Shown here: positions 47,599 through 64,000 of the stretch, piece by piece | How the letters are laid out: each line of letters opens with the position of its first letter | Numbering within the stretch: the first letter of the stretch is position 1 | Origin: an uncultured Hormoscilla sp. | GTDB taxonomy: Bacteria > Cyanobacteriota > Cyanobacteriia > Cyanobacteriales > Desertifilaceae | Reading direction: 5' to 3' | Length of the DNA stretch: 64,000 bases | NCBI GenBank assembly: GCA_963921275.4 | Contig: OZ001293.3 | Location: forward strand, 6,080,001-6,144,000 | Notes under the pieces: model-generated | Seen by the model: the letters and a program-made list of their open reading frames with translations, nothing else | What the model was told of the DNA's origin: nothing | The model's database searches: none | Program-made: the position numbers and the translations under genes

Positions 47599-48254
47599 GT
47601 GCGACTTGTTCCGGCGTAAACCAGTAATGGTGAAAGTCGGGTCTGGTTCCATTAACTAGATAACTCTGGTCATCATGAGGGTTAGTGCGTGGTGCTGTCC
47701 TCATTTGGACAAGTTAGATGTAAAGCGCATGCTCACGTGGGGAGGGATGTCCTAAGAAGCTAATGCCTGGGCGGTGTCTGGAGCATGCCGATGGCGCTAC
47801 GCTGGGGGCGCCAGCCGTGTCCTGAAGGACAAGAGCATGCGGAAGACGCCGGGTAATGCCTAGGATATGCAGACGTACAACGGATATGGTAAGAAGTCCT
47901 GGGAGATAGTAGCTTTCCAAACGTGCATAACCAGGAGCAATCCTAGGTAGTAATGATGGATTAAAATCCTAACCGGGTAAAAATGTAGATCCCCCAAGAT
48001 ACGGGTACCTGTTAGTAAAGAGCGGTTATGGTGGTTTCCTAGTTCTCCCCCGCGAATCTTCCGGAGTTAGGTACTCAACGGTTCATTGACTGACCATAAA
48101 GAAGCGAAATCTCATAGGATAAGGGACAACGGGGGTAACCCCTAGTAATTCTGCTCATGACAATAGCTTACCAACCAGTAGCCCTGTGCGGTGAAAGTCG
48201 CTCTTCAGGTTCCGAAAGGGAGGGTTGGGAAGTGATTCCCAGGGAGACCCCGAC
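47599..48254 (+). mobile_element. Degenerate ORF-less group II intron, intergenic
   Basis: 5' GTGCGACTTGTTCC homologous to the iscA intron; large domain I deletion; mutated domain V; ends CCCCGAC. Confidence 0.85.
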
Positions 48255-54497: not shown

Positions 54498-56372
54498 TCA
54501 TGCATCAATTTCAACTCGTCCTACCGGGTGGGCGCTGCAAGTCAAAATCATACCTTGGGCGCAATCGCCTGCCGTGAGGGCTTCCGGGTCCTCATCATAG
54601 GTCACCTCTCCTGCCAATAGCTTCTGCTTGCAAGTGCCGCATATTCCCGAGCGGCAGTCGCTATCCAATTCCAGATATTCTCGTTCTGCTACATCCAGGA
54701 TGAATTCTGCTTGAGAGCAAGTAATTTCTTTTCCAGACTTAGCGAACGCCACCACAGCCGTTGGTGCCTGTCCATTTTTCCCATTCCCATTGTCAGAGTC
54801 TGCCTGTCCGAGAGGTTCCTCCACTTTTAACAGGCCATTAAGTGGTTGAGCATCGAAATGCTTAATCAACAAGTCTCTCATTACTGGTTTGAGGTCTTCA
54901 CAGGGAATTGCTTTCATCGTGCGGCTGCCCAATTTGGCATCTTTGCCCACCTTGCCGCCTATGTATATATCCACCCCTTCGACAACTTTGCCGTTTTTGC
55001 GTGCTTTTGTGCCCATCAACCCAATATCTGCCACTTGCGGTTGACCGCAGGAATTTGGGCAACCTGTCCAGTGAATTCTGACAGGTTTTGGTATAGATAA
55101 CTCTTGTTCTACTTCTTTAATCAGCGCCTGGGCCTGATTTTTGGTTTCGATCAGGGCAAATTTGCAAAATTGGGCACCAGTACAAGAAACTAAGGCCCTG
55201 CTTAAAGGTTTGGGGTTGATGGAAAATCTTTCTTGCAGCTGCGGTTCGGCTAAGAAGGCTTCTAAGCAAGAGTTGGCAATGTTGGGAATGATGACATTTT
55301 GCTCGACTGTTAATCTGATTTCCCCACTGCCGTAGACTTCTGCCATCCGGGCCAGTTCAAACATTTCTGGTGCGTACAGGCGTCCGACGGGGACATGCAA
55401 ACCGACATAGTTTAAGTGCGGTTGCTTTTGTCGATGAACCCCGATGTGGTCCCGCTTTTCCCAGTCTATTTCATCTTTGGGGGCGGCGGTCAATATCTCG
55501 CGCCCCAACTGTTTTTCTACTTCGGTCCGGAATTTCTCGATTCCCCATTCATCAATTAACCACATCAACCGCGCTTTTTGCCTGTTCGCCCGCAGACCCC
55601 GATCGCGATATACTTCCAGGATGGCTTTGCTGATGTCTACCACTTCATCAGTCCTAACCCAAGCATTCATAGGCACTGCAGCAGCGCAGCGCTTGGCCGA
55701 GAAGAAACCTCCTACCAGGACATTAAAGCCTAGGCGTTCTTCTTTGTAGGCGGGAACGTAGGCGATATCATTGATTTCCGCGTGGACTGAATTGTCCCTA
55801 CCTCCCGCGATCGCAATATTAAATTTCCGGGGCAAGTTGGTAAAAGCGGGGTTACCTTGACTATTGTTGGTAATCATGTCCTGAACTTTCTTGACCAGTT
55901 CCCGGGTGTCGATCAATTCATGGGCATCAATTCCTGCCACGGGTGAACCGGTTATATTCCGGACGTTATCCATCCCCGACTGCACTGATGTCAAACCTAT
56001 TTGGTCAAATTTGGCAAAGATTTCGGGAATGTCTTCTATCCGAATGCCCCGCAGTTGGATGTTTTGCCTGGTGGTAATGTCAGCATTGCCATCTTCGCCG
56101 TAGCCCTGGACTATTTCCGCTAGTGTCCGCATTTGGATGGTGTTGAGAATGCCGTTGGGCATCCGCATCCGCAGCATGAATTTTCCCGGTGTGACCGGTC
56201 TAAAGAACACCCCTAGCCATTTCAGGCGTTGGGTCAAGTCTGTTTCATCGATCGCCTCCCACCCTAGTTGGGCAAACTTTTCTAGTTCCGCTTTTACTGC
56301 CAGACCATCTTTTTCCGCTTTTAATTTCTCAAATTTATTCAGCTTTGCCTCTGTCTGTACTGTCGCAGTCAT
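54498..56372 (-). CDS. nirA: Ferredoxin-nitrite reductase with a fused C-terminal 2Fe-2S ferredoxin
   Basis: TTRQNIQ, LPRKFN, SCTGAQFC and TGCPNSCG motifs; tail CRSGICGTC..ILTC. Confidence 0.96.
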   Translation of the reverse strand: MTATVQTEAKLNKFEKLKAEKDGLAVKAELEKFAQLGWEAIDETDLTQRLKWLGVFFRPVTPGKFMLRMRMPNGILNTIQMRTLAEIVQGYGEDGNADITTRQNIQLRGIRIEDIPEIFAKFDQIGLTSVQSGMDNVRNITGSPVAGIDAHELIDTRELVKKVQDMITNNSQGNPAFTNLPRKFNIAIAGGRDNSVHAEINDIAYVPAYKEERLGFNVLVGGFFSAKRCAAAVPMNAWVRTDEVVDISKAILEVYRDRGLRANRQKARLMWLIDEWGIEKFRTEVEKQLGREILTAAPKDEIDWEKRDHIGVHRQKQPHLNYVGLHVPVGRLYAPEMFELARMAEVYGSGEIRLTVEQNVIIPNIANSCLEAFLAEPQLQERFSINPKPLSRALVSCTGAQFCKFALIETKNQAQALIKEVEQELSIPKPVRIHWTGCPNSCGQPQVADIGLMGTKARKNGKVVEGVDIYIGGKVGKDAKLGSRTMKAIPCEDLKPVMRDLLIKHFDAQPLNGLLKVEEPLGQADSDNGNGKNGQAPTAVVAFAKSGKEITCSQAEFILDVAEREYLELDSDCRSGICGTCKQKLLAGEVTYDEDPEALTAGDCAQGMILTCSAHPVGRVEIDA

Positions 56373-56545: not shown

Positions 56546-56775
56546 AAAATATTAAGAAATTTGAGTTTTTTGCATGAATTTAATGCGGAATGTGCATGGA
56601 CTGTGATTGCATGGGGAGTTGTCTGGCTGAAGGTGCTGCCGGTTGCAGTAGTTACTCTGGACAGCAGGCTATTGGCAGTGTCTAGTCCAGAACGGCGATC
56701 AGCGCACGTGTAGGTAAGAGAGCAAGGATTTTTGCCATCCCGAAACGTGAGTTCTCTGTTCGGAGTTTGGGCTCG

Positions 56776-56893
56776 GGTGCGGCTCAGGTACGGCTCTGGT
56801 ACGGCTCGACTACGGCTCGACTACGGCTCAGGTACGGCTCTGGTACGGCTCGACTACGGCTCGACTACGGCTCAGGTACGGCTCGGATACGGC
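56776..56893. repeat. 11-bp tandem array TACGGCTC(AGG/TGG/GAC) with a 44-bp higher-order period
   Basis: About 10.5 units in the order AGG,TGG,GAC,GAC,AGG,TGG,GAC,GAC,AGG,GGA. Confidence 0.92.
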
Positions 56894-57061
56894 GACCGGT
56901 GTGTAAGAACAACGCCAAGCTCTGTATAGTGTTGGTCGGAATTTTATTTGCAAGCGATCGGGAACTTCTGGTGATTGGCTTGGCGTCATGTTTTCTGAGG
57001 CGGCGCTGTTTGAGCTTTGCTTTATGGTATACAGGTTGTAGTTACTTTAAGGAGGTGTGCT

Positions 57062-57796
57062 ATGGCACGCTATGGAGGTGACCCAAAGTCGGGTCGAGTT
57101 GGTAATTTGGTTTATCGGGCTGACGGAGTTGTTCAGAGCGCTCCAGTTGCTCGGCGTCGCTCTAATTCTCCTCGGGTAAAGGAAAATAACAGTGACTTTG
57201 CCACTACGTCTAGATATGTTGAGTTTTTTCGCAACAATGCTCTTGTGCTGATGCCAATTCGCGATTCTCGGCAGAGGTCTAGGTTGTTCCGGTCTGTGAG
57301 GCTGGCCTTAAATAGTGATGGCGCGAATTCTAGAGGGTCTAAGCGTCTTGATAGAAGTCTAGGTATTCTTGTCTTTCAGGATTTTCAGCTAAACGCTAAT
57401 GCTACCTTTGAGTCGTTGTTTGGCGGTTCTGTGATTTTCTCTGGTTCTGGTGTAGAGATTAAAAACGCTCTGGGGAATTCTTACACTGGTTTGGATGCTC
57501 GTGCTCCTTCTGAAGCGACTCACCTGGAATTTACTTCTGTTGTTGTGGGCTTCGATCTTAAGCCTGATGAGCCTATGGTCTCTGCGATCGCTCAGCAGGG
57601 GTCTACTGGTAAAGTTCCCTTGGACTCTACTGCGGTGACGTTTTTACCCAATCCGGGATTGGATCCATCTGACTCCGCTGGCACTGTACTGCATGTGGCG
57701 ATTATTGGTTTGCAGTTCTTCCAGGAAGATGCTTCCCGGTATTATCTTCTTAACAATGTTAAGTACAAGGGTGCTAAGGTGGTGTTTGCTGGTTAG
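57062..57796 (+). CDS. Hypothetical protein, foreign-looking (Bacteroidota-type family by recall)
   Basis: TAAGGAGG RBS; SGRVGNLVYR..RVKENNSDF..FQLNANA..APSEATHL..GLQFFQE; T-ending codon bias. Confidence 0.8.
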   Translation: MARYGGDPKSGRVGNLVYRADGVVQSAPVARRRSNSPRVKENNSDFATTSRYVEFFRNNALVLMPIRDSRQRSRLFRSVRLALNSDGANSRGSKRLDRSLGILVFQDFQLNANATFESLFGGSVIFSGSGVEIKNALGNSYTGLDARAPSEATHLEFTSVVVGFDLKPDEPMVSAIAQQGSTGKVPLDSTAVTFLPNPGLDPSDSAGTVLHVAIIGLQFFQEDASRYYLLNNVKYKGAKVVFAG

Positions 57797-58148
57797 GAAC
57801 TTGCTCTCACTTCGCTGTCATCCGCCTCAAGTCGGTTAAAACAGACTAAGAGAATAATGATTGAAATTTGTAGCCAACCTTGACCAAATGCGTTCCCGGG
57901 AGCCTCTTAACGAGGGGAAATGGTAAAAAATCAAGGGGCAAAATCTCCTCGCCGAACGGTATTGACAACGGCGCGATCGCTCTATAGAGACCTTTTTGAG
58001 GCGATCGCGCCAACCCGGTTTCTGGCAAGGGCGATCGCGCGGGGTCCAGAAACCGGGTTTCTCTGTATTTTTGCTGGTATTGGAGAATATGCAGTTTAGA
58101 TGGATGAAGGGTTATAATTAAATTAGAGATGAATAAGGAGGATGTAAA

Positions 58149-58721
58149 ATGGTCAAGTCTGGGTTACTATTGCGGACTGTACCAGACGATCCGGCTGCGG
58201 TGCTCGCTGAAACTGGCTGGCGATATGTAGAGGAAGTGCAGCCGGACGGTACTACTAAGAATATCCTGCTAGAAGATTCCCGGGTGCCTTTGCTGTTGGC
58301 TTCCGATTTTTCCGGAACGGTAAAGTCAGTGGCTAGACTGCCAGGAGGCGAGGCGCAGGTTGTTTTCTTGGATAAAGATTGGCCGCTCATTTGTCAGTAT
58401 AGCGAGGAAAATATCGCCAGGGAAGCGAAACAGGCTTCCCTGGCTTATGTCATCTACACTTCCGGTTCTACAGGCAGGCCGAAAGGGGTGGAGGTCGAGC
58501 ATCAAAGTCTGGTGAATGCTTATCGAGCATGGGAGCAAGCCTATCAGCTACAGAGAAGCAGTCATCTCCAAATGGCCAGTTTCTCCTTTGATGTCTTTAC
58601 GGGAGATTGGGTGCGATCGCTTTGTTCGGGAGCGAAGTTAGTGCTCTGTCCGAGAGAGTTTTTGTTGGATCCCGAAAAGCTGTATCGGTTGATGCTCCAA
58701 GAGGAAGTCGATTGTGATTGA
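58149..58721 (+). pseudogene. Chimeric ORF: short Uma2-like N-terminus fused to an internal NRPS A-domain fragment
   Basis: GWRYVEEVQPDGT, then [28 protein letters not shown]; no A5-A10 motifs. Confidence 0.7.
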
Positions 58722-60126
58722 ATCTCTCAAAGACCCCGAAGAGGCTGCTGCCGGTGACTTTAATGGGGACAATCATGATGATATCCTCCGTCAAGAAAAG
58801 GGCAGTTGGTCCAACGACGATGCCGTAAGGACTGCTGAAGTCCTCTTATCCCAAGGTAACGGCAACTTTACCCGCACCACCCTTCCTGAGAGTTTTGCTC
58901 TCAATGGCAACTTTACCAATTTGTACATCGGTGACTTTAATGGGGACGGGAAAAGCGATATCCTCCGTCAAGAAAACGGCAGTTGGTCCAACGACGATGC
59001 CGTAAGGACTGCTGAAGTCCTCTTATCCCAAGGTAACGGCAACTTTACCCGCACCACCCTTCCTGAGAGTTTCGAGCTCAATGGCAACTTTACCAATTTG
59101 TATGTCGGTGACTTTAATGGAGACGGGAAAAGCGATATCCTCCGTCAAGAAAACGGCAGTTGGTCCAACGACGATGCCGTAAGGACTGCTGAAGTCCTCT
59201 TATCCCAAGGTAACGGCAACTTTACCCGCACCACCCTTCCTGAGAGTTTCGCTCTCAATGGCAACTTTACCAATTTGTATGTCGGTGACTTTAATGGAGA
59301 CGGGAAAAGCAATATCCTCCGTCAAGAAAAGGGCGATTGGGATAACGATGCCGTAAGGACTGCTGAAGTCCTCTTATCCCAAGGTAACGGCAACTTTACC
59401 CGCACCACCCTTCCTGATAGTTTCGAGCTCAAGGGCGACTTGACCAAGTTGTATATAGAAGATTTGGATGGTGATGACCGAGATGAGATTCTGGTTCAAA
59501 AAAAATCGGCCCAAGGGGATCTGTCCCGCGTCCTGAAGGTATTGTCCTCAAATGATGGGCGCAATTTTACCGAATCTCCTTCTGCGCTTCCGTTTTCCAG
59601 TCAAAGCGGGCAACTGTATATTGCCGATTACTCCGGCAGTGGGCAAAACAATGATGTTCTGGTTCAGCGTTCTGGAAATAACCAAGCGCTGCTAGGCAGC
59701 ATTACCCTGGGGAGCAATGACTACCTTCAAGGGGGAACAGGAAACGATTCCCTCAATGGGGGTAACGGAAACGACTGGATTCGCGGATACGGGGGCGACG
59801 ATACCCTTTTAGGGGGCAGCGATAACGATACTCTCTATGGCGACGAGGGAGAGGATATTCTCAATGGGGGTAAGGGGCACGACATGCTTTACGGCAATTC
59901 CGGTAGTGATACTTTTGTCTTGGCCCGGGGCATGGGCGGGGATACCATCCAGGACTTTTCAGATGGTACGGACTTTATCCGGTTAGAAGGAGGTTTGAGT
60001 TTTGCTGATTTAGGAATTGATTCTCAGAACGATTCGACTTCTATTAAGGTCAGTGCTTCTGGGGAACTGTTGGGGATTTTGTCGGGGGTTGATTCTAGTC
60101 TTATTGGTGCTTCTGATTTTGTTTAG
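58714..60126 (+). CDS. FG-GAP repeat / RTX calcium-binding protein (probably 5'-truncated)
   Basis: Four 177-nt GDFNGDG repeats (58753, 58930, 59107, 59284); GGxGxD nonamers; type I secretion-like C-terminus. Confidence 0.8.
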   Translation: MIESLKDPEEAAAGDFNGDNHDDILRQEKGSWSNDDAVRTAEVLLSQGNGNFTRTTLPESFALNGNFTNLYIGDFNGDGKSDILRQENGSWSNDDAVRTAEVLLSQGNGNFTRTTLPESFELNGNFTNLYVGDFNGDGKSDILRQENGSWSNDDAVRTAEVLLSQGNGNFTRTTLPESFALNGNFTNLYVGDFNGDGKSNILRQEKGDWDNDAVRTAEVLLSQGNGNFTRTTLPDSFELKGDLTKLYIEDLDGDDRDEILVQKKSAQGDLSRVLKVLSSNDGRNFTESPSALPFSSQSGQLYIADYSGSGQNNDVLVQRSGNNQALLGSITLGSNDYLQGGTGNDSLNGGNGNDWIRGYGGDDTLLGGSDNDTLYGDEGEDILNGGKGHDMLYGNSGSDTFVLARGMGGDTIQDFSDGTDFIRLEGGLSFADLGIDSQNDSTSIKVSASGELLGILSGVDSSLIGASDFV

Positions 60127-60323
60127 TTACGGTAAGGCTGTTGTTTTCCCTGGGGGGCCTTTGACTGCTATTGGGGTGTGGTCTTGCGCCCGTTGGTAGG
60201 AGACAGTAGCCGGGCCAGTGAAGGGCCGGTGATCGTCAACAGCAGTAGCGTCAATGAAGGTAGCCAGTCTCTTGTAGTGATTTTAGCACCGGCAACTCGG
60301 GACCCTAGTCAAATCACTGCATA

Positions 60324-60393
60324 ACCAAAGTTGCGACCTACACAAACAGGCAAAATCAACTCCCCTGCTGTTTCTCCTCCGAGCAACTTGGGT
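60324..60393. mobile_element. 70-bp IS982-type mini-MITE
   Basis: Ends ACCAAAGTTGC...GCAACTTGGGT; near-duplication TGCATA/TACATA on the flanks. Confidence 0.65.
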
Positions 60394-60493
60394 TACATAT
60401 AGAGCAGTACCAGTAGACATTCTGGACCTGAGTTTGATCTGGTTAAGATGTCCTCAGCGGATAAAGGTCTTGATTGCTGGCCATTTGAGCTAC

Positions 60494-60823
60494 GTATAGC
60501 GAGGAAAATATCGCCAGGGAAGCGAAACAGGCTTCCCTGGCTTATGTCATCTACACTTCCGGTTCTACAGGCAGGCCGAAAGGGGTGGAGGTCGAGCATC
60601 AAAGTCTGGTGAATGCTTATCGAGCATGGGAGCAAGCCTATCAGCTACAGAGAAGCAGTCATCTCCAAATGGCCAGTTTCTCCTTTGATGTCTTTACGGG
60701 AGATTGGGTGCGATCGCTTTGTTCGGGAGCGAAGTTAGTGCTCTGTCCGAGAGAGTTTTTGTTGGATCCCGAAAAGCTGTATCGGTTGATGCTCCAAGAG
60801 GAAGTCGATTGTGATTGAATCTC
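60494..60823 (+). pseudogene. Second copy of the NRPS A-domain fragment (duplicate of 58397-58726)
   Basis: 330-bp apparently identical repeat. Confidence 0.9.
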
Positions 60824-62850
60824 GCAAGTGATTACGCCGCCCTTCGGGCTCTCTATAACAGTACTTCTGGGAAGAATTGGACGAATAAGACAGGCTGGGA
60901 TGTTAGCAGCCCAACTCCCCCCGATGCTTCTGTTGTTAATAGCTGGCATGGGGTGACGGTAGTGGGCTCACGGGTGACGGAACTCTCGCTGTCCTCCAAC
61001 AACCTGAGCGGTACGATCCCCTCTGAGTTAGACTCCCTCAGCAATTTGCAATATCTCTACCTGTCCTCCAACAACCTGAGCGGTACGCTCCCCTCGGAGT
61101 TAGGCTTCCTCAGCAATTTGCAATATCTCTACCTGGGTCCAACTCCCTGAGCGGTACGCTCCCCTCGGAGTTAGGCTTCCTCATCAATTTGCAATATCTC
61201 TACCTGGGCTCCAACTCCCTGAGCGGTACGCTCCCCTCGGAGTTAGGCTCCCTCAGCAATTTGCAAGACCTCTCCCTGGAGGAAAACTCTCTGAGCGGTA
61301 CGCTCCCCTCGGAGTTAGGCTCCCTCAGCAATTTGCAAGTACTCAACCTGGACAGAAACTCCCTGAGCGGTACGCTCCCCTCGGAGTTAGGCTCCCTTAG
61401 CAATTTGCAATACCTCTGGCTGGAGTCCAACGACTTTCGCGGTACGATCCCCAACAGTATCAACGCTTTGTCAGCAGACAAACAATTGGAAAACCCTCCC
61501 TATGTGGAAATTCAAATTCCCGACGTCAATGCCTTCAGGAGTGAGAACTTCAACTTCAATGTCAGCCGGAACTTCGGCGACCTCAACAACAACATTAGTA
61601 GCTACGGCGCTAATGGTTTGCCAAACGGTTTAACCATTAACTCCACTACTGGGGTGATCAGCGGCACTCCTACTACTGATGGCAGTTTTACCGTGACGGT
61701 AACAGCAACGGATAGGGCGGGAGGCCGGGGAGAGGATGAATTTAATATTACAGTATCGCGTCCCACTAGCTTCACCCTTTCTGGGAGTTTCGCCCTCAAT
61801 CGCGACTTTACCAATTTGTATGTCGGTGACTTTAATGGAGACGAAAAAAGCGATATCCTCCGTCAAGAAAAGGGCAGTTGGTCCAAGGACGATGCCGTAA
61901 GGACTGCTGACGTCCTCTTATCCCAAGGTAACGGCAACTTTACCCGCACCACCCTTCCTGATAGTTTCGCTCTCAATGGCAACTTTACCAATTTGTATGT
62001 CGGTGACTTTAATGGAGACGGGAAAAGCGATATCCTCCGTCAAGAAAAGGGCGATTGGGATAACGATGCCATTCGGACTGCTGAAGTCCTCTTATCCCAA
62101 GGTAACGGCAACTTTACCCGCACCACCCTTCCTGATAGTTTCGAGCTCAAGGGCGACTTGACCAAGTTGTATATAGAAGATTTGGATGGTGATGGCCGAG
62201 ATGAGATTCTGGTTCAAAAAAAATCGGCCCAAGGGGGTCTGTCCCGCCTCCTGAAGGTATTGTTCTCAAATGATGGGCGCAATTTTACCGAATCTCTGCT
62301 CCCTTCTGCGCTTCAGTTTTCCAGTCAAAACGGGCAACTGTATATTGCCGATTACTCCGGCAGTGGGCAAAACAATGATGTTCTGGTTCAGCGTTCTGGA
62401 AATAACCAAGCGCTGCTAGACAGCATTACCCTGGGGAGCAATGACTACCTTCAAGGGGGAACAGGAAACGATTCCCTCAATGGGGGTAACGGAAACGACT
62501 GGATTCGTGGATACGGGGGCAACGATAGCCTTTTAGGGGGCAGCGATAACGATATTCTCTATGGCGACGAGGGAGAGGATATTCTCGATGGGGGTAAGGG
62601 GCACGACATGCTTTACGGCAATTCCGGTAGTGATACTTTTGTCTTGGCCCGGGGCATGGGCGGGGATACCATCCAGGACTTTTCAGATGGTACGGACTTT
62701 ATCCGGTTAGGAGGAGGTTTGAGTTTTGCTGATTTAGGAATTGATTCTCAGAACGGTTCGACTTCTATTAAGGTCAGTGCTTCTGGGGAACTGTTGGGGA
62801 TTTTGTCGGGGGTTGATTCTAGTCTTATTGGTGCTTCTGATTTTGTTTAG
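60815..62850 (+). pseudogene. LRR + Ig-like (He_PIG) + FG-GAP + RTX protein with a 1-bp deletion near 61137
   Basis: ALRALYNST..W..W plant-like LRR cap; 72-nt LRRs LSGTLPSELGSLSNL; GLPNGLTINSTTGVISGTPT; CTGGGTCC versus CTGGGCTCC in the sister repeat. Confidence 0.85.
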
Positions 62851-63001
62851 TTACGGTAAGGCTGTTGTTTTCCCTGGGGGGCCTTTGACTGCTATTGGGG
62901 TGTGGTCTTGCGCCCGTTGGTAGGAGACAGTAGCCGGGCCAGTGAAGGGCCGGTGTCTGTCCTATGGTATACAGGTTGTAGTTACTTTAAGGAGGTGTGC
63001 T

Positions 63002-63724
63002 ATGGCACGCTATGGAGGTGACCCAAAGTCGGGTCGAGTTGGTAATTTGGTTTATCGGGCTGACGGAGTTGTTCAGAGCGCTCCAGTTGCTCGGCGTTGC
63101 TCTAATTCTCCTCGGGTAAAGGAAAATAACAGTGACTTTGCCACTACGTCTAAATATGTTGAGTTTTTTCGCAACAATGCTCTTGTGCTGATGCCAATTC
63201 GCGATTCTCGGCAGAGGTCTAGGTTGTTCCGGTCTGTGAGGCTGGCCTTAAATAGTGATGGCGCGAATTCTAGAGGGTCTAAGCGTCTTGATAGAAGTCT
63301 AGGTATTCTTGTCTTTCAGGATTTTCAGCTAAACGCTAATGCTACCTTTGAGTCGTTGTTTGGCGGTTCTGTGATTTTCTCTGGTTCTGGTGTAGAGCTT
63401 AAAAACGCTCTGGGGAATTCTTACACTGGTTTGGATGCTCGTGCTCCTTCTGAAGCGACTCACCTGGAATTTACTTCTGTTGTTGTGGGCTTCGATCTTA
63501 AGCCTGATGAGCCTATGGTCTCTGCGATCGCTCAGCAGGGGTCTACTGGTAAAGTTCCCTTGGACTCTACTGCGGTGACGTTTTCACCCAACCCGGGATT
63601 GGATCCATCTGACTCCGCTGGCACTGTACTGCATGTGGCGATTATTGGTTTGCAGTTCTTCCAGGAAGATGCTTCCCGGTATTATCTTCTTAACCTAAGT
63701 TGCGACCTATTAAAAAAAATATGA
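63002..63724 (+). pseudogene. Near-identical copy of the 57062 gene, 3' end cut by an IS
   Basis: 57023-57754 matches 62963-63694 with few substitutions. Confidence 0.88.
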
Positions 63725-64000
63725 ATTACCCACTTAGACTTTACAGATATTTGGGATATTTCGTAGCTTTTGATACAAAATTATATTTTTTTTGTGCTAG
63801 ACGGCGGGTTGGCTGTTTATAGGTTATAATGTACTAAAATAATAGTTAATTGCTGGGGGATGTAGATGATGGAAGATATGATTACAACAATTTTTGTTCT
63901 TTGTGACGAGCTACTAAAAGCGTTAAATATAAAAGAAGATCCACAAGTAAAAATGAACAATGCCGAAGTGATGACAGTCGGATTAGTTGCTGCATATTTT
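63693..64000 (+). mobile_element. IS982 family element, left end plus transposase start at 63866 (runs off window)
   Basis: End ACCTAAGTTGCGACC; MMEDMITTIFVLCDELLKAL..KMNNAEVMTVGLVAAYF. Confidence 0.8.

Follow-up and report, generated by a model that had tools for sequence, protein, structure and literature searches.

The 64,000-nucleotide stretch of a Hormoscilla chromosome analyzed here (the window) contains a tandem array of 11-bp repeats upstream of a gene for a 244-residue protein, and comparison of homologues shows that the two are statistically coupled; the pair appears to be a genuine and conserved unit of array and protein that is distant from known families and seems not to have been described before. 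Hormoscilla is described as a genus of sponge-symbiotic cyanobacteria (PMC7313196). We tentatively favor, at somewhat less than even confidence, an interpretation in which array and gene are the core of a small mobile unit whose protein would bind the array and coat the DNA of the element.

The array and the gene

The array lies at 56767..56893, with no strand assigned, and comprises about 11 units of TACGGCTCNNN; Tandem Repeats Finder (TRF) places it at 56770-56893 with a period of 11, 11.3 copies and 84% matches. The units consist of TACGGCTC followed by AGG, TGG, GAC or GGA, the first two being degenerate, and they fit the family motif given below. The gap between the end of the array and the ATG of the gene is 168 nt, which bears out an earlier sequence-only reading of this DNA that had described about 10.5 units of 11 bp some 170 nt upstream. 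That reading had also claimed a 44-bp superperiod, which is present in the window (TRF period 44, 2.6 copies, 97%) but is not conserved: copy number varies among strains, with about 10 units in the orthologous array of Hormoscilla genome G302, 4 in G303 and 9 in G304, and the unit orders differ. Because of these differences the 44-bp order is best seen as a recent duplication pattern, and we discarded it, as strain-specific, from the conserved or meaningful features. A structured-RNA explanation was also rejected; the strand folded as DNA is no better than shuffles (z +1.1), and arrays occur in both orientations.

The gene (P0001; 57062..57796, + strand) belongs to an unannotated family and follows the sequence AAGGAGG (57049..57055, + strand), the strong ribosome-binding site (RBS) that had been reported. 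Its product is predicted to have an arginine-rich N-terminal half, formed of a beta-meander and helices, and an Ig/FN3/C2-like beta-sandwich in the C-terminal half, in agreement with the basic N terminus and beta-rich C terminus proposed earlier. The T-ending codons said to be unlike those of the neighbors are also real: T occupies the third position at a frequency of 0.48, compared with 0.19-0.23 in nirA and two upstream nitrate genes, and the gene and a paralogue described below rank as the top two for this measure among 2,625 long open frames of the chromosome. In DNA contigs from four runs the gene is covered by X2, X3 and X5.

Coupling of arrays to homologous genes

We scored as an array any period-11 tract reaching at least 22 of 33 within 700 nt upstream of the gene. 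Among 77 Bacteroidota genome loci, 73 have enough upstream sequence and 30 of these carry an array; the controls are far lower, with 4/71 downstream of the gene, 0/60 and 2/66 at distant positions, 7/138 upstream of other genes and 0/365 in shuffles, and tracts of period 10 and of period 12 are each found upstream of the gene at 1/73 loci. The metagenome loci give a similar result (29/64 upstream vs 2/70 downstream). The counts support the earlier statement that such genes in Bacteroidota are preceded by 11-bp arrays. The arrays are confined to positions -50 to -450 from the gene, and the signal is strongest between -150 and -450.

An array is present at 88 of 199 loci, where this set and the set of 138 non-cyanobacterial loci used below were not deduplicated by locus and hold related loci with few duplicates, so that their counts are descriptive. 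These arrays yield 66 distinct units that share the motif T[GA][CG]NNTATC[TC]A, which has 7.8 bits vs 5.0 in shuffles (maximum 5.29 in 12 shuffles). Forty units are in the forward and 26 in the reverse orientation, and the use of both orientations fits a double-stranded DNA site. A second cyanobacterial clade has an array at all seven loci with upstream sequence; in G323, which has nine paralogues, six score at least 22 and two more score 21, the units being mostly different from one another.

Distribution and likely horizontal transfer

A profile search recovered 5,105 clusters at 50% identity, mostly from Bacteroidota and unannotated, and the description of the gene as an orphan is thus not sustained. 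The closest named relatives of the 244-residue protein are from Hormoscilla, and the paralogue bridges it to Bacteroidota proteins of about 250 residues, so that the link to that phylum proposed earlier is supported. None of 84 family members matches a Pfam model at E <= 0.01, DUF6266 included; neither Hormoscilla protein has a match in PHROGs or NCBIfam, and no PDB sequence is below E 0.02. Literature searches, covering main texts of mostly openly available papers, found neither the family nor the array described, and nothing relevant on DUF6266.

The family is present in 18 of 251 Bacteroidota genomes, with one to four copies each except for the nine of G323. Each of seven Fulvitalea plasmids (from one strain) has one copy, and there is one on a Marivirga plasmid. 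The scattered occurrence in genomes and the copies on the Fulvitalea plasmids speak for mobility. Three IMG/VR scans found 0, 1 and 1 loci in the viral collections, of which one is beside a Mu-like prophage and the other is a partial match. Two variants depart in length: a high-GC clade (L167, L176, L195, L200 and L202) encodes versions of about 340 residues with a C-terminal extension, and keeps the small helix-turn-helix (HTH) gene discussed below where the flank suffices, with no array at threshold; one further member (L232) has 511 residues.

Within the cyanobacteria we find the family only in Hormoscilla and in one clade from a metagenome scan (L160-L165, L169 and L173). L173 is considered cyanobacterial because it carries an HpsJ-like gene above the cut-off, and L160-L165 and L169 are assumed to be cyanobacterial by similarity. 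Samples of 300 and 400 other cyanobacterial genomes gave one positive each, and both are the same 2.5-kb contig (L004, G218:C152), a low-GC sequence in a cyanobacterial assembly that contains a full Flavobacterium-type module. From its low GC and module layout this is probable Flavobacterium-like contamination, and we do not count it as a second cyanobacterial genome. Both cyanobacterial groups form one branch (Shimodaira-Hasegawa-like approximate likelihood-ratio test, SH-aLRT, 99) in a quick tree of 57 rows with a midpoint root, which fits one old transfer into the cyanobacteria; because the tree is unrooted, the direction of transfer is read from the distribution. The patchy cyanobacterial presence and the trees support the proposal that the gene is likely to have been acquired horizontally from other bacteria, and a Bacteroidota-to-cyanobacterium transfer is likely. 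The relatives are thus not ordinary cyanobacterial genes lacking upstream arrays, the outcome that the sequence-only reading had named as counting against it.

Arrays and paralogues in Hormoscilla

A match to the gene occurs in three of four other genomes of the genus. In this genome a paralogue with 32% identity (C1:2671130-2671864) has its own 11-mer array about 500 nt upstream, built from a different unit, GGGATTTGGGT; given 25 period-11 tracts in 6.9 Mb, we estimate the chance of finding an array near the paralogue at about 0.3% per gene. Between the paralogue and its array are three tandem units of about 110 bp that bear hairpins (L001:3930-4290); G304 has about four of them. In a third lineage (L009) the array unit is of a third type and runs in the reverse orientation, and the codons are A/C-rich and not T-rich.

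The chromosome has 25 period-11 tracts, compared with three whose period is 10 and four whose period is 13. Alignment of seventeen period-11 tracts separates them into three families, each of which has conserved flanking sequence of 100-150 bp and corresponds to a single gene lineage; the members of family C have homologous flanks, yet their unit has been replaced with no change in period. About 23 arrays on the chromosome (G000:C1) are gene-less, for example those at 4214927-4215230, 4534699-4534901, 997851-997924, 48100-48159 and 4503438-4503497; those that were aligned belong to the three dispersed families and lie mostly in sequence that is G+T-rich on one strand. The gene-less arrays may serve as additional sites for binding, or they may be elements that are non-autonomous.

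The ratio of nonsynonymous to synonymous substitution rates (dN/dS) is 0.12 when two Hormoscilla lineages are compared and 0.08 within the second cyanobacterial clade; this is purifying selection, and it shows a protein that has had a function in cyanobacteria, although the window lineage may be relaxing. Two other observations concern this genome: a lone 16-codon fragment (L003:3110-3157; G000:C1:2089106-2089156), 94% identical to the C-terminal end of the gene, lies by palindromic repeats, and a 31-kb contig (G000:C3) with 17.6% GC and an internal repeat of about 15 kb is probably foreign to the genome.

Neighboring genes and the likely binder

A small HTH-like gene is found near the gene in 60 of the 77 genome loci, and by coordinate comparison all 13 HTH copies in five genomes adjoin it. 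Nevertheless, array frequency is equal with and without the HTH gene (34/83 and 25/55 loci, respectively), and the arrays therefore go with the gene for the 244-residue protein and not with the HTH gene. Homologues of the HTH, DUF5675 and membrane proteins were looked for in this genome and none were found; the HTH gene is beside only one of the nine paralogues of G323, and an unrelated XRE-type HTH gene is present in four of the seven array loci of the second cyanobacterial clade. The sole gene common to all array-bearing modules is that for the 244-residue protein, whose N-terminal half has near-invariant basic residues at R38, R40, K54, R57, R74, R91 and R94. Because it is the only constant gene, and because these arginines and the lysine are conserved, we infer that its product is the array binder.

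Genes of a lysis type commonly follow. At 70 of the 138 non-cyanobacterial loci, DUF5675 or either of two small membrane proteins is encoded within 1.5 kb. A preprint (bioRxiv 10.64898/2026.04.11.717860) classes DUF5675 with the C82 peptidases as a phage lysin. The second cyanobacterial clade has instead a non-homologous phage lysozyme, fused to a C39 peptidase in L161 and also present in L169, together with small membrane-type genes. The presence of two unrelated lysis cassettes behind one gene suggests that its product, or a complex containing it, may need to exit from the cell. No lysis-type genes were found on the chromosome of this genome; a phage-lysozyme homologue lies on a 42-kb contig (G000:C6:12088-12531), unlinked to the gene copies. 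Among the clustered neighbors of the 77 loci there is no recurrent NTPase family. The Fulvitalea plasmids (L089-L093) have a gene for a 71-residue membrane and coiled-coil protein between the HTH gene and the main gene; its layout resembles that of the small gene which follows the lysozyme gene of L161 and L169.

Predicted structure

The AlphaFold2 model (mean predicted local distance difference test score, pLDDT, of 77.9) consists of a low-confidence N-terminal beta-meander, three helices and a beta-sandwich. The structure prediction and fold search that had been suggested thus uphold the arginine-rich N-terminal half and the beta-sandwich C-terminal half, but they return only generic beta-sandwich or helical matches: nothing with Foldseek at E <= 0.001, and with VIA a best Z of 4.8 (C2/FN3-like) for the whole model and no more than 5.6 for the N-terminal half. 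A weak or missing fold match is no proof of a new fold. In language-model features the N-terminal half resembles clusters of DUF6266 (PF19781), a Bacteroidota family without known function, at 0.83-0.84; this is a lead only, as the family members do not match the Pfam model. A hint of similarity to the coat protein AFV1 ORF140 (rank 50, Z 4.2, root-mean-square deviation 10.8 over 89 residues) was dismissed as noise.

The insertion site and the duplication

The insertion site is fixed by the divergent host nitrite reductase gene nirA (54498..56372, - strand), and is occupied also in G302, G303 and G304; the other window neighbors of the gene are Uma2 and FG-GAP genes. A direct duplication of 1.24 kb includes the RBS, the gene and the start of the Uma2 gene. 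Copy 1 is at 57023..58266 (+ strand), and because the duplicated segment begins at 57023 the array was left outside it. Copy 2 (62963..63694, + strand), which is 99.3% identical and has its ATG at 63002, lacks the array as had been stated, but it is not intact: it is broken after codon 231 by an insertion element of about 1 kb with a DDE transposase, which starts at 63695..64000 (+ strand) and runs past the end of the window, with the last 13 codons beyond it. Only copy 2 has the whole Uma2 gene, which is cut in copy 1.

The two copies are separated by about 4.7 kb (58267-62962) that carry FG-GAP, LRR, Ig and RTX-repeat genes and AMP-binding fragments. The G+T skew is very strong (+0.42 and +0.41) at 60000-60200 and 62800-63000, the 3' ends of FG-GAP genes, and a short repeated element lies just after both of these stretches and is seen too near C1:6763690.

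Possible functions of the unit

In the interpretation that we tentatively favor, array and gene would be the core that is left of a small unit, which is likely to be mobile and to have been acquired horizontally. Since many distant relatives keep such an array, the protein is likely to bind the 11-bp repeats upstream of its own gene, with one site for each helical turn; it would then polymerize from the array and coat the DNA of the element. In complete versions the lysis cassette would release this nucleoprotein from the cell, the Bacteroidota version having DUF5675 and two small membrane proteins after the gene, and the second-clade version a phage lysozyme or C39 peptidase and small membrane proteins. 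Binding may also repress the gene itself, since the array overlaps the upstream promoter region. The unit in the window is probably a reduced and partly decaying relic, as the regulator and lysis genes are missing in this genome.

A number of observations weigh against this interpretation. At threshold, 111 of the 199 homologues have no array, including the high-GC clade and the copies on all seven Fulvitalea plasmids, among which the highest score is 21, reached by one, and conversely most 11-mer arrays in this genome are gene-less, with only two of the 25 accompanied by the gene; G472 has three gene-less arrays. The cassette is missing at half of the loci, the window locus included, and arrays are not commoner beside lysis genes (23/70 vs 36/68). 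The gene is broken in G302, in G304 and in duplication copy 2, and comparison of the window gene with G303 gives a dN/dS of 0.47 on only 27 changes, a sign of weak constraint. There is no fold match to a nucleocapsid or DNA-binding protein at the Z values given above, and the viral occurrences amount to two contigs over the three scans, while 50,697 phage records yielded no match.

Of the alternatives, the one that survives best, though we think it somewhat unlikely, is that the array is the operator of the small HTH protein or of a host factor, with the 244-residue protein as cargo (for example a toxin or a DNA-binding protein that acts outside the cell) whose export depends on a holin/peptidoglycan-hydrolase cassette. 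In many Bacteroidota loci the array directly adjoins the start codon of the divergent HTH gene, and the strict proximity of HTH copies to the gene and the lysin and membrane genes following it in 70/138 loci are as this explanation would predict. It is harder to reconcile with an array frequency that is independent of the HTH gene, and with retention of the motif where the HTH gene is missing, as in this genome, or has an XRE-type gene in its place; a host factor would have to be common to two phyla. Palmer and colleagues reportedly described in 2021 a holin/peptidoglycan-hydrolase (type X) secretion (cited in PMC10202321). Loci with the cassette resemble it in that genes for a wall hydrolase and small, putatively holin-like membrane proteins come after that of a putative cargo, but the cassette occurs in about half of the loci and not here, and we know of no phased array in type X secretion.

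An unlikely explanation is that the unit serves plasmid or integrative-element maintenance, with the array as a centromere or recombination-accessory site on which the protein builds a nucleoprotein complex, and the lysis genes as passengers or a killing module. Rep-iteron replicons have helically phased repeats beside their gene. The resemblance extends to the single copy on each of the seven Fulvitalea plasmids, five of which have a rep gene within 6 kb and two of which have xerA next door; however, those rep genes are separate, the family has no Rep family or fold match, and it is mostly chromosomal and multi-copy. The Fulvitalea copies are also without a clear array, and ParA/ParB are already present on three of the seven plasmids in the stretch read. 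One of the arrays is located at the 3' end of a presumed trmE/mnmE GTPase gene, which we take to be an integration site, but a tRNA is within 4 kb in only 8 of the 77 Bacteroidota genome loci, and a rule of tRNA-anchored islands was judged weak and dropped. In the ParMRC system of plasmid R1, ParR requires a pair of 11-bp repeats; the repeat sequence changes from one cognate pair to another, and binding seeds a higher-order complex (PMC9426499). The likeness of our loci to R1 parC/ParR is thus in direct repeats upstream of a gene, in their 11-bp length and in cognate repeat differences, but membership fails on the NTPase, as no actin-like or Walker ATPase recurs among the neighbors; moreover, ParR is a ribbon-helix-helix adaptor, whereas the constant partner here is a two-domain protein of 244 residues, often with lysis genes attached. 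The iteron- or centromere-like role suggested by the sequence-only reading consequently lacks its partner genes.

A doubtful and bolder version of the favored interpretation is that these units are a class, not recognized before, of self-packaging minimal mobile elements of bacteria, in which one protein with a new architecture nucleates on the array, wraps the element DNA as a helical filament and exits by an acquired lysis cassette; the protein would then have the gene-less arrays as its non-autonomous satellites. The filament might possibly be of the A form, in which one turn of DNA takes about 11 bp. Helical virions with A-form DNA are described in Adnaviria (PMC9643867). The basic helical N-terminal half is like an Adnaviria coat, but the protein has an extra beta-sandwich and no viral genome context.

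Improbable in our view is that the array is a self-renewing minisatellite within a small dispersed element that hitch-hikes with an independent gene, without any binding. This would account for a genome full of tandem repeats, for three gene-less array families with conserved flanks, for copy numbers of 4 to 11 across strains and for the lack of an array in over half of the homologues, but not readily for the retention of period and motif across two phyla at 20-30% protein identity, for the replacement of the unit at constant period in family C, or for the confined position upstream of the gene. Finally, it is very improbable that a true virus or phage satellite, equipped with replication genes of its own, has the protein as its coat and the array as its packaging signal. 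The row of regulator, basic protein, lysin and holin-like genes and the strong strand skew of the cyanobacterial copies (third-position about -0.5 in L160, L161, L163 and L164; third-position T of about 0.5 in the window gene) are set against the absence of recurrent replication, packaging or structural neighbors, near absence from viral collections and no capsid fold match, so that the capsid-like role proposed earlier is without fold support. The skew of control genes correlates as well (rho 0.44 vs 0.67), so that we regard it as weak as a family-specific signature.

Significance

The array provides a candidate DNA target for a family of more than 5,000 clusters for which the libraries searched hold no annotation, fold match or paper, and nature supplies variants that can be treated as cognate and non-cognate pairs, with three array families in one genus and several in one Bacteroidota genome. 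If the favored interpretation is true, a DNA coat that reads helical phase would be a new type of machinery for mobile elements, and might be of use for assembling DNA under the direction of arrays. The Hormoscilla unit is also a likely case of transfer that preserved a non-coding periodic signal, with both sets of partner genes either exchanged or lost.
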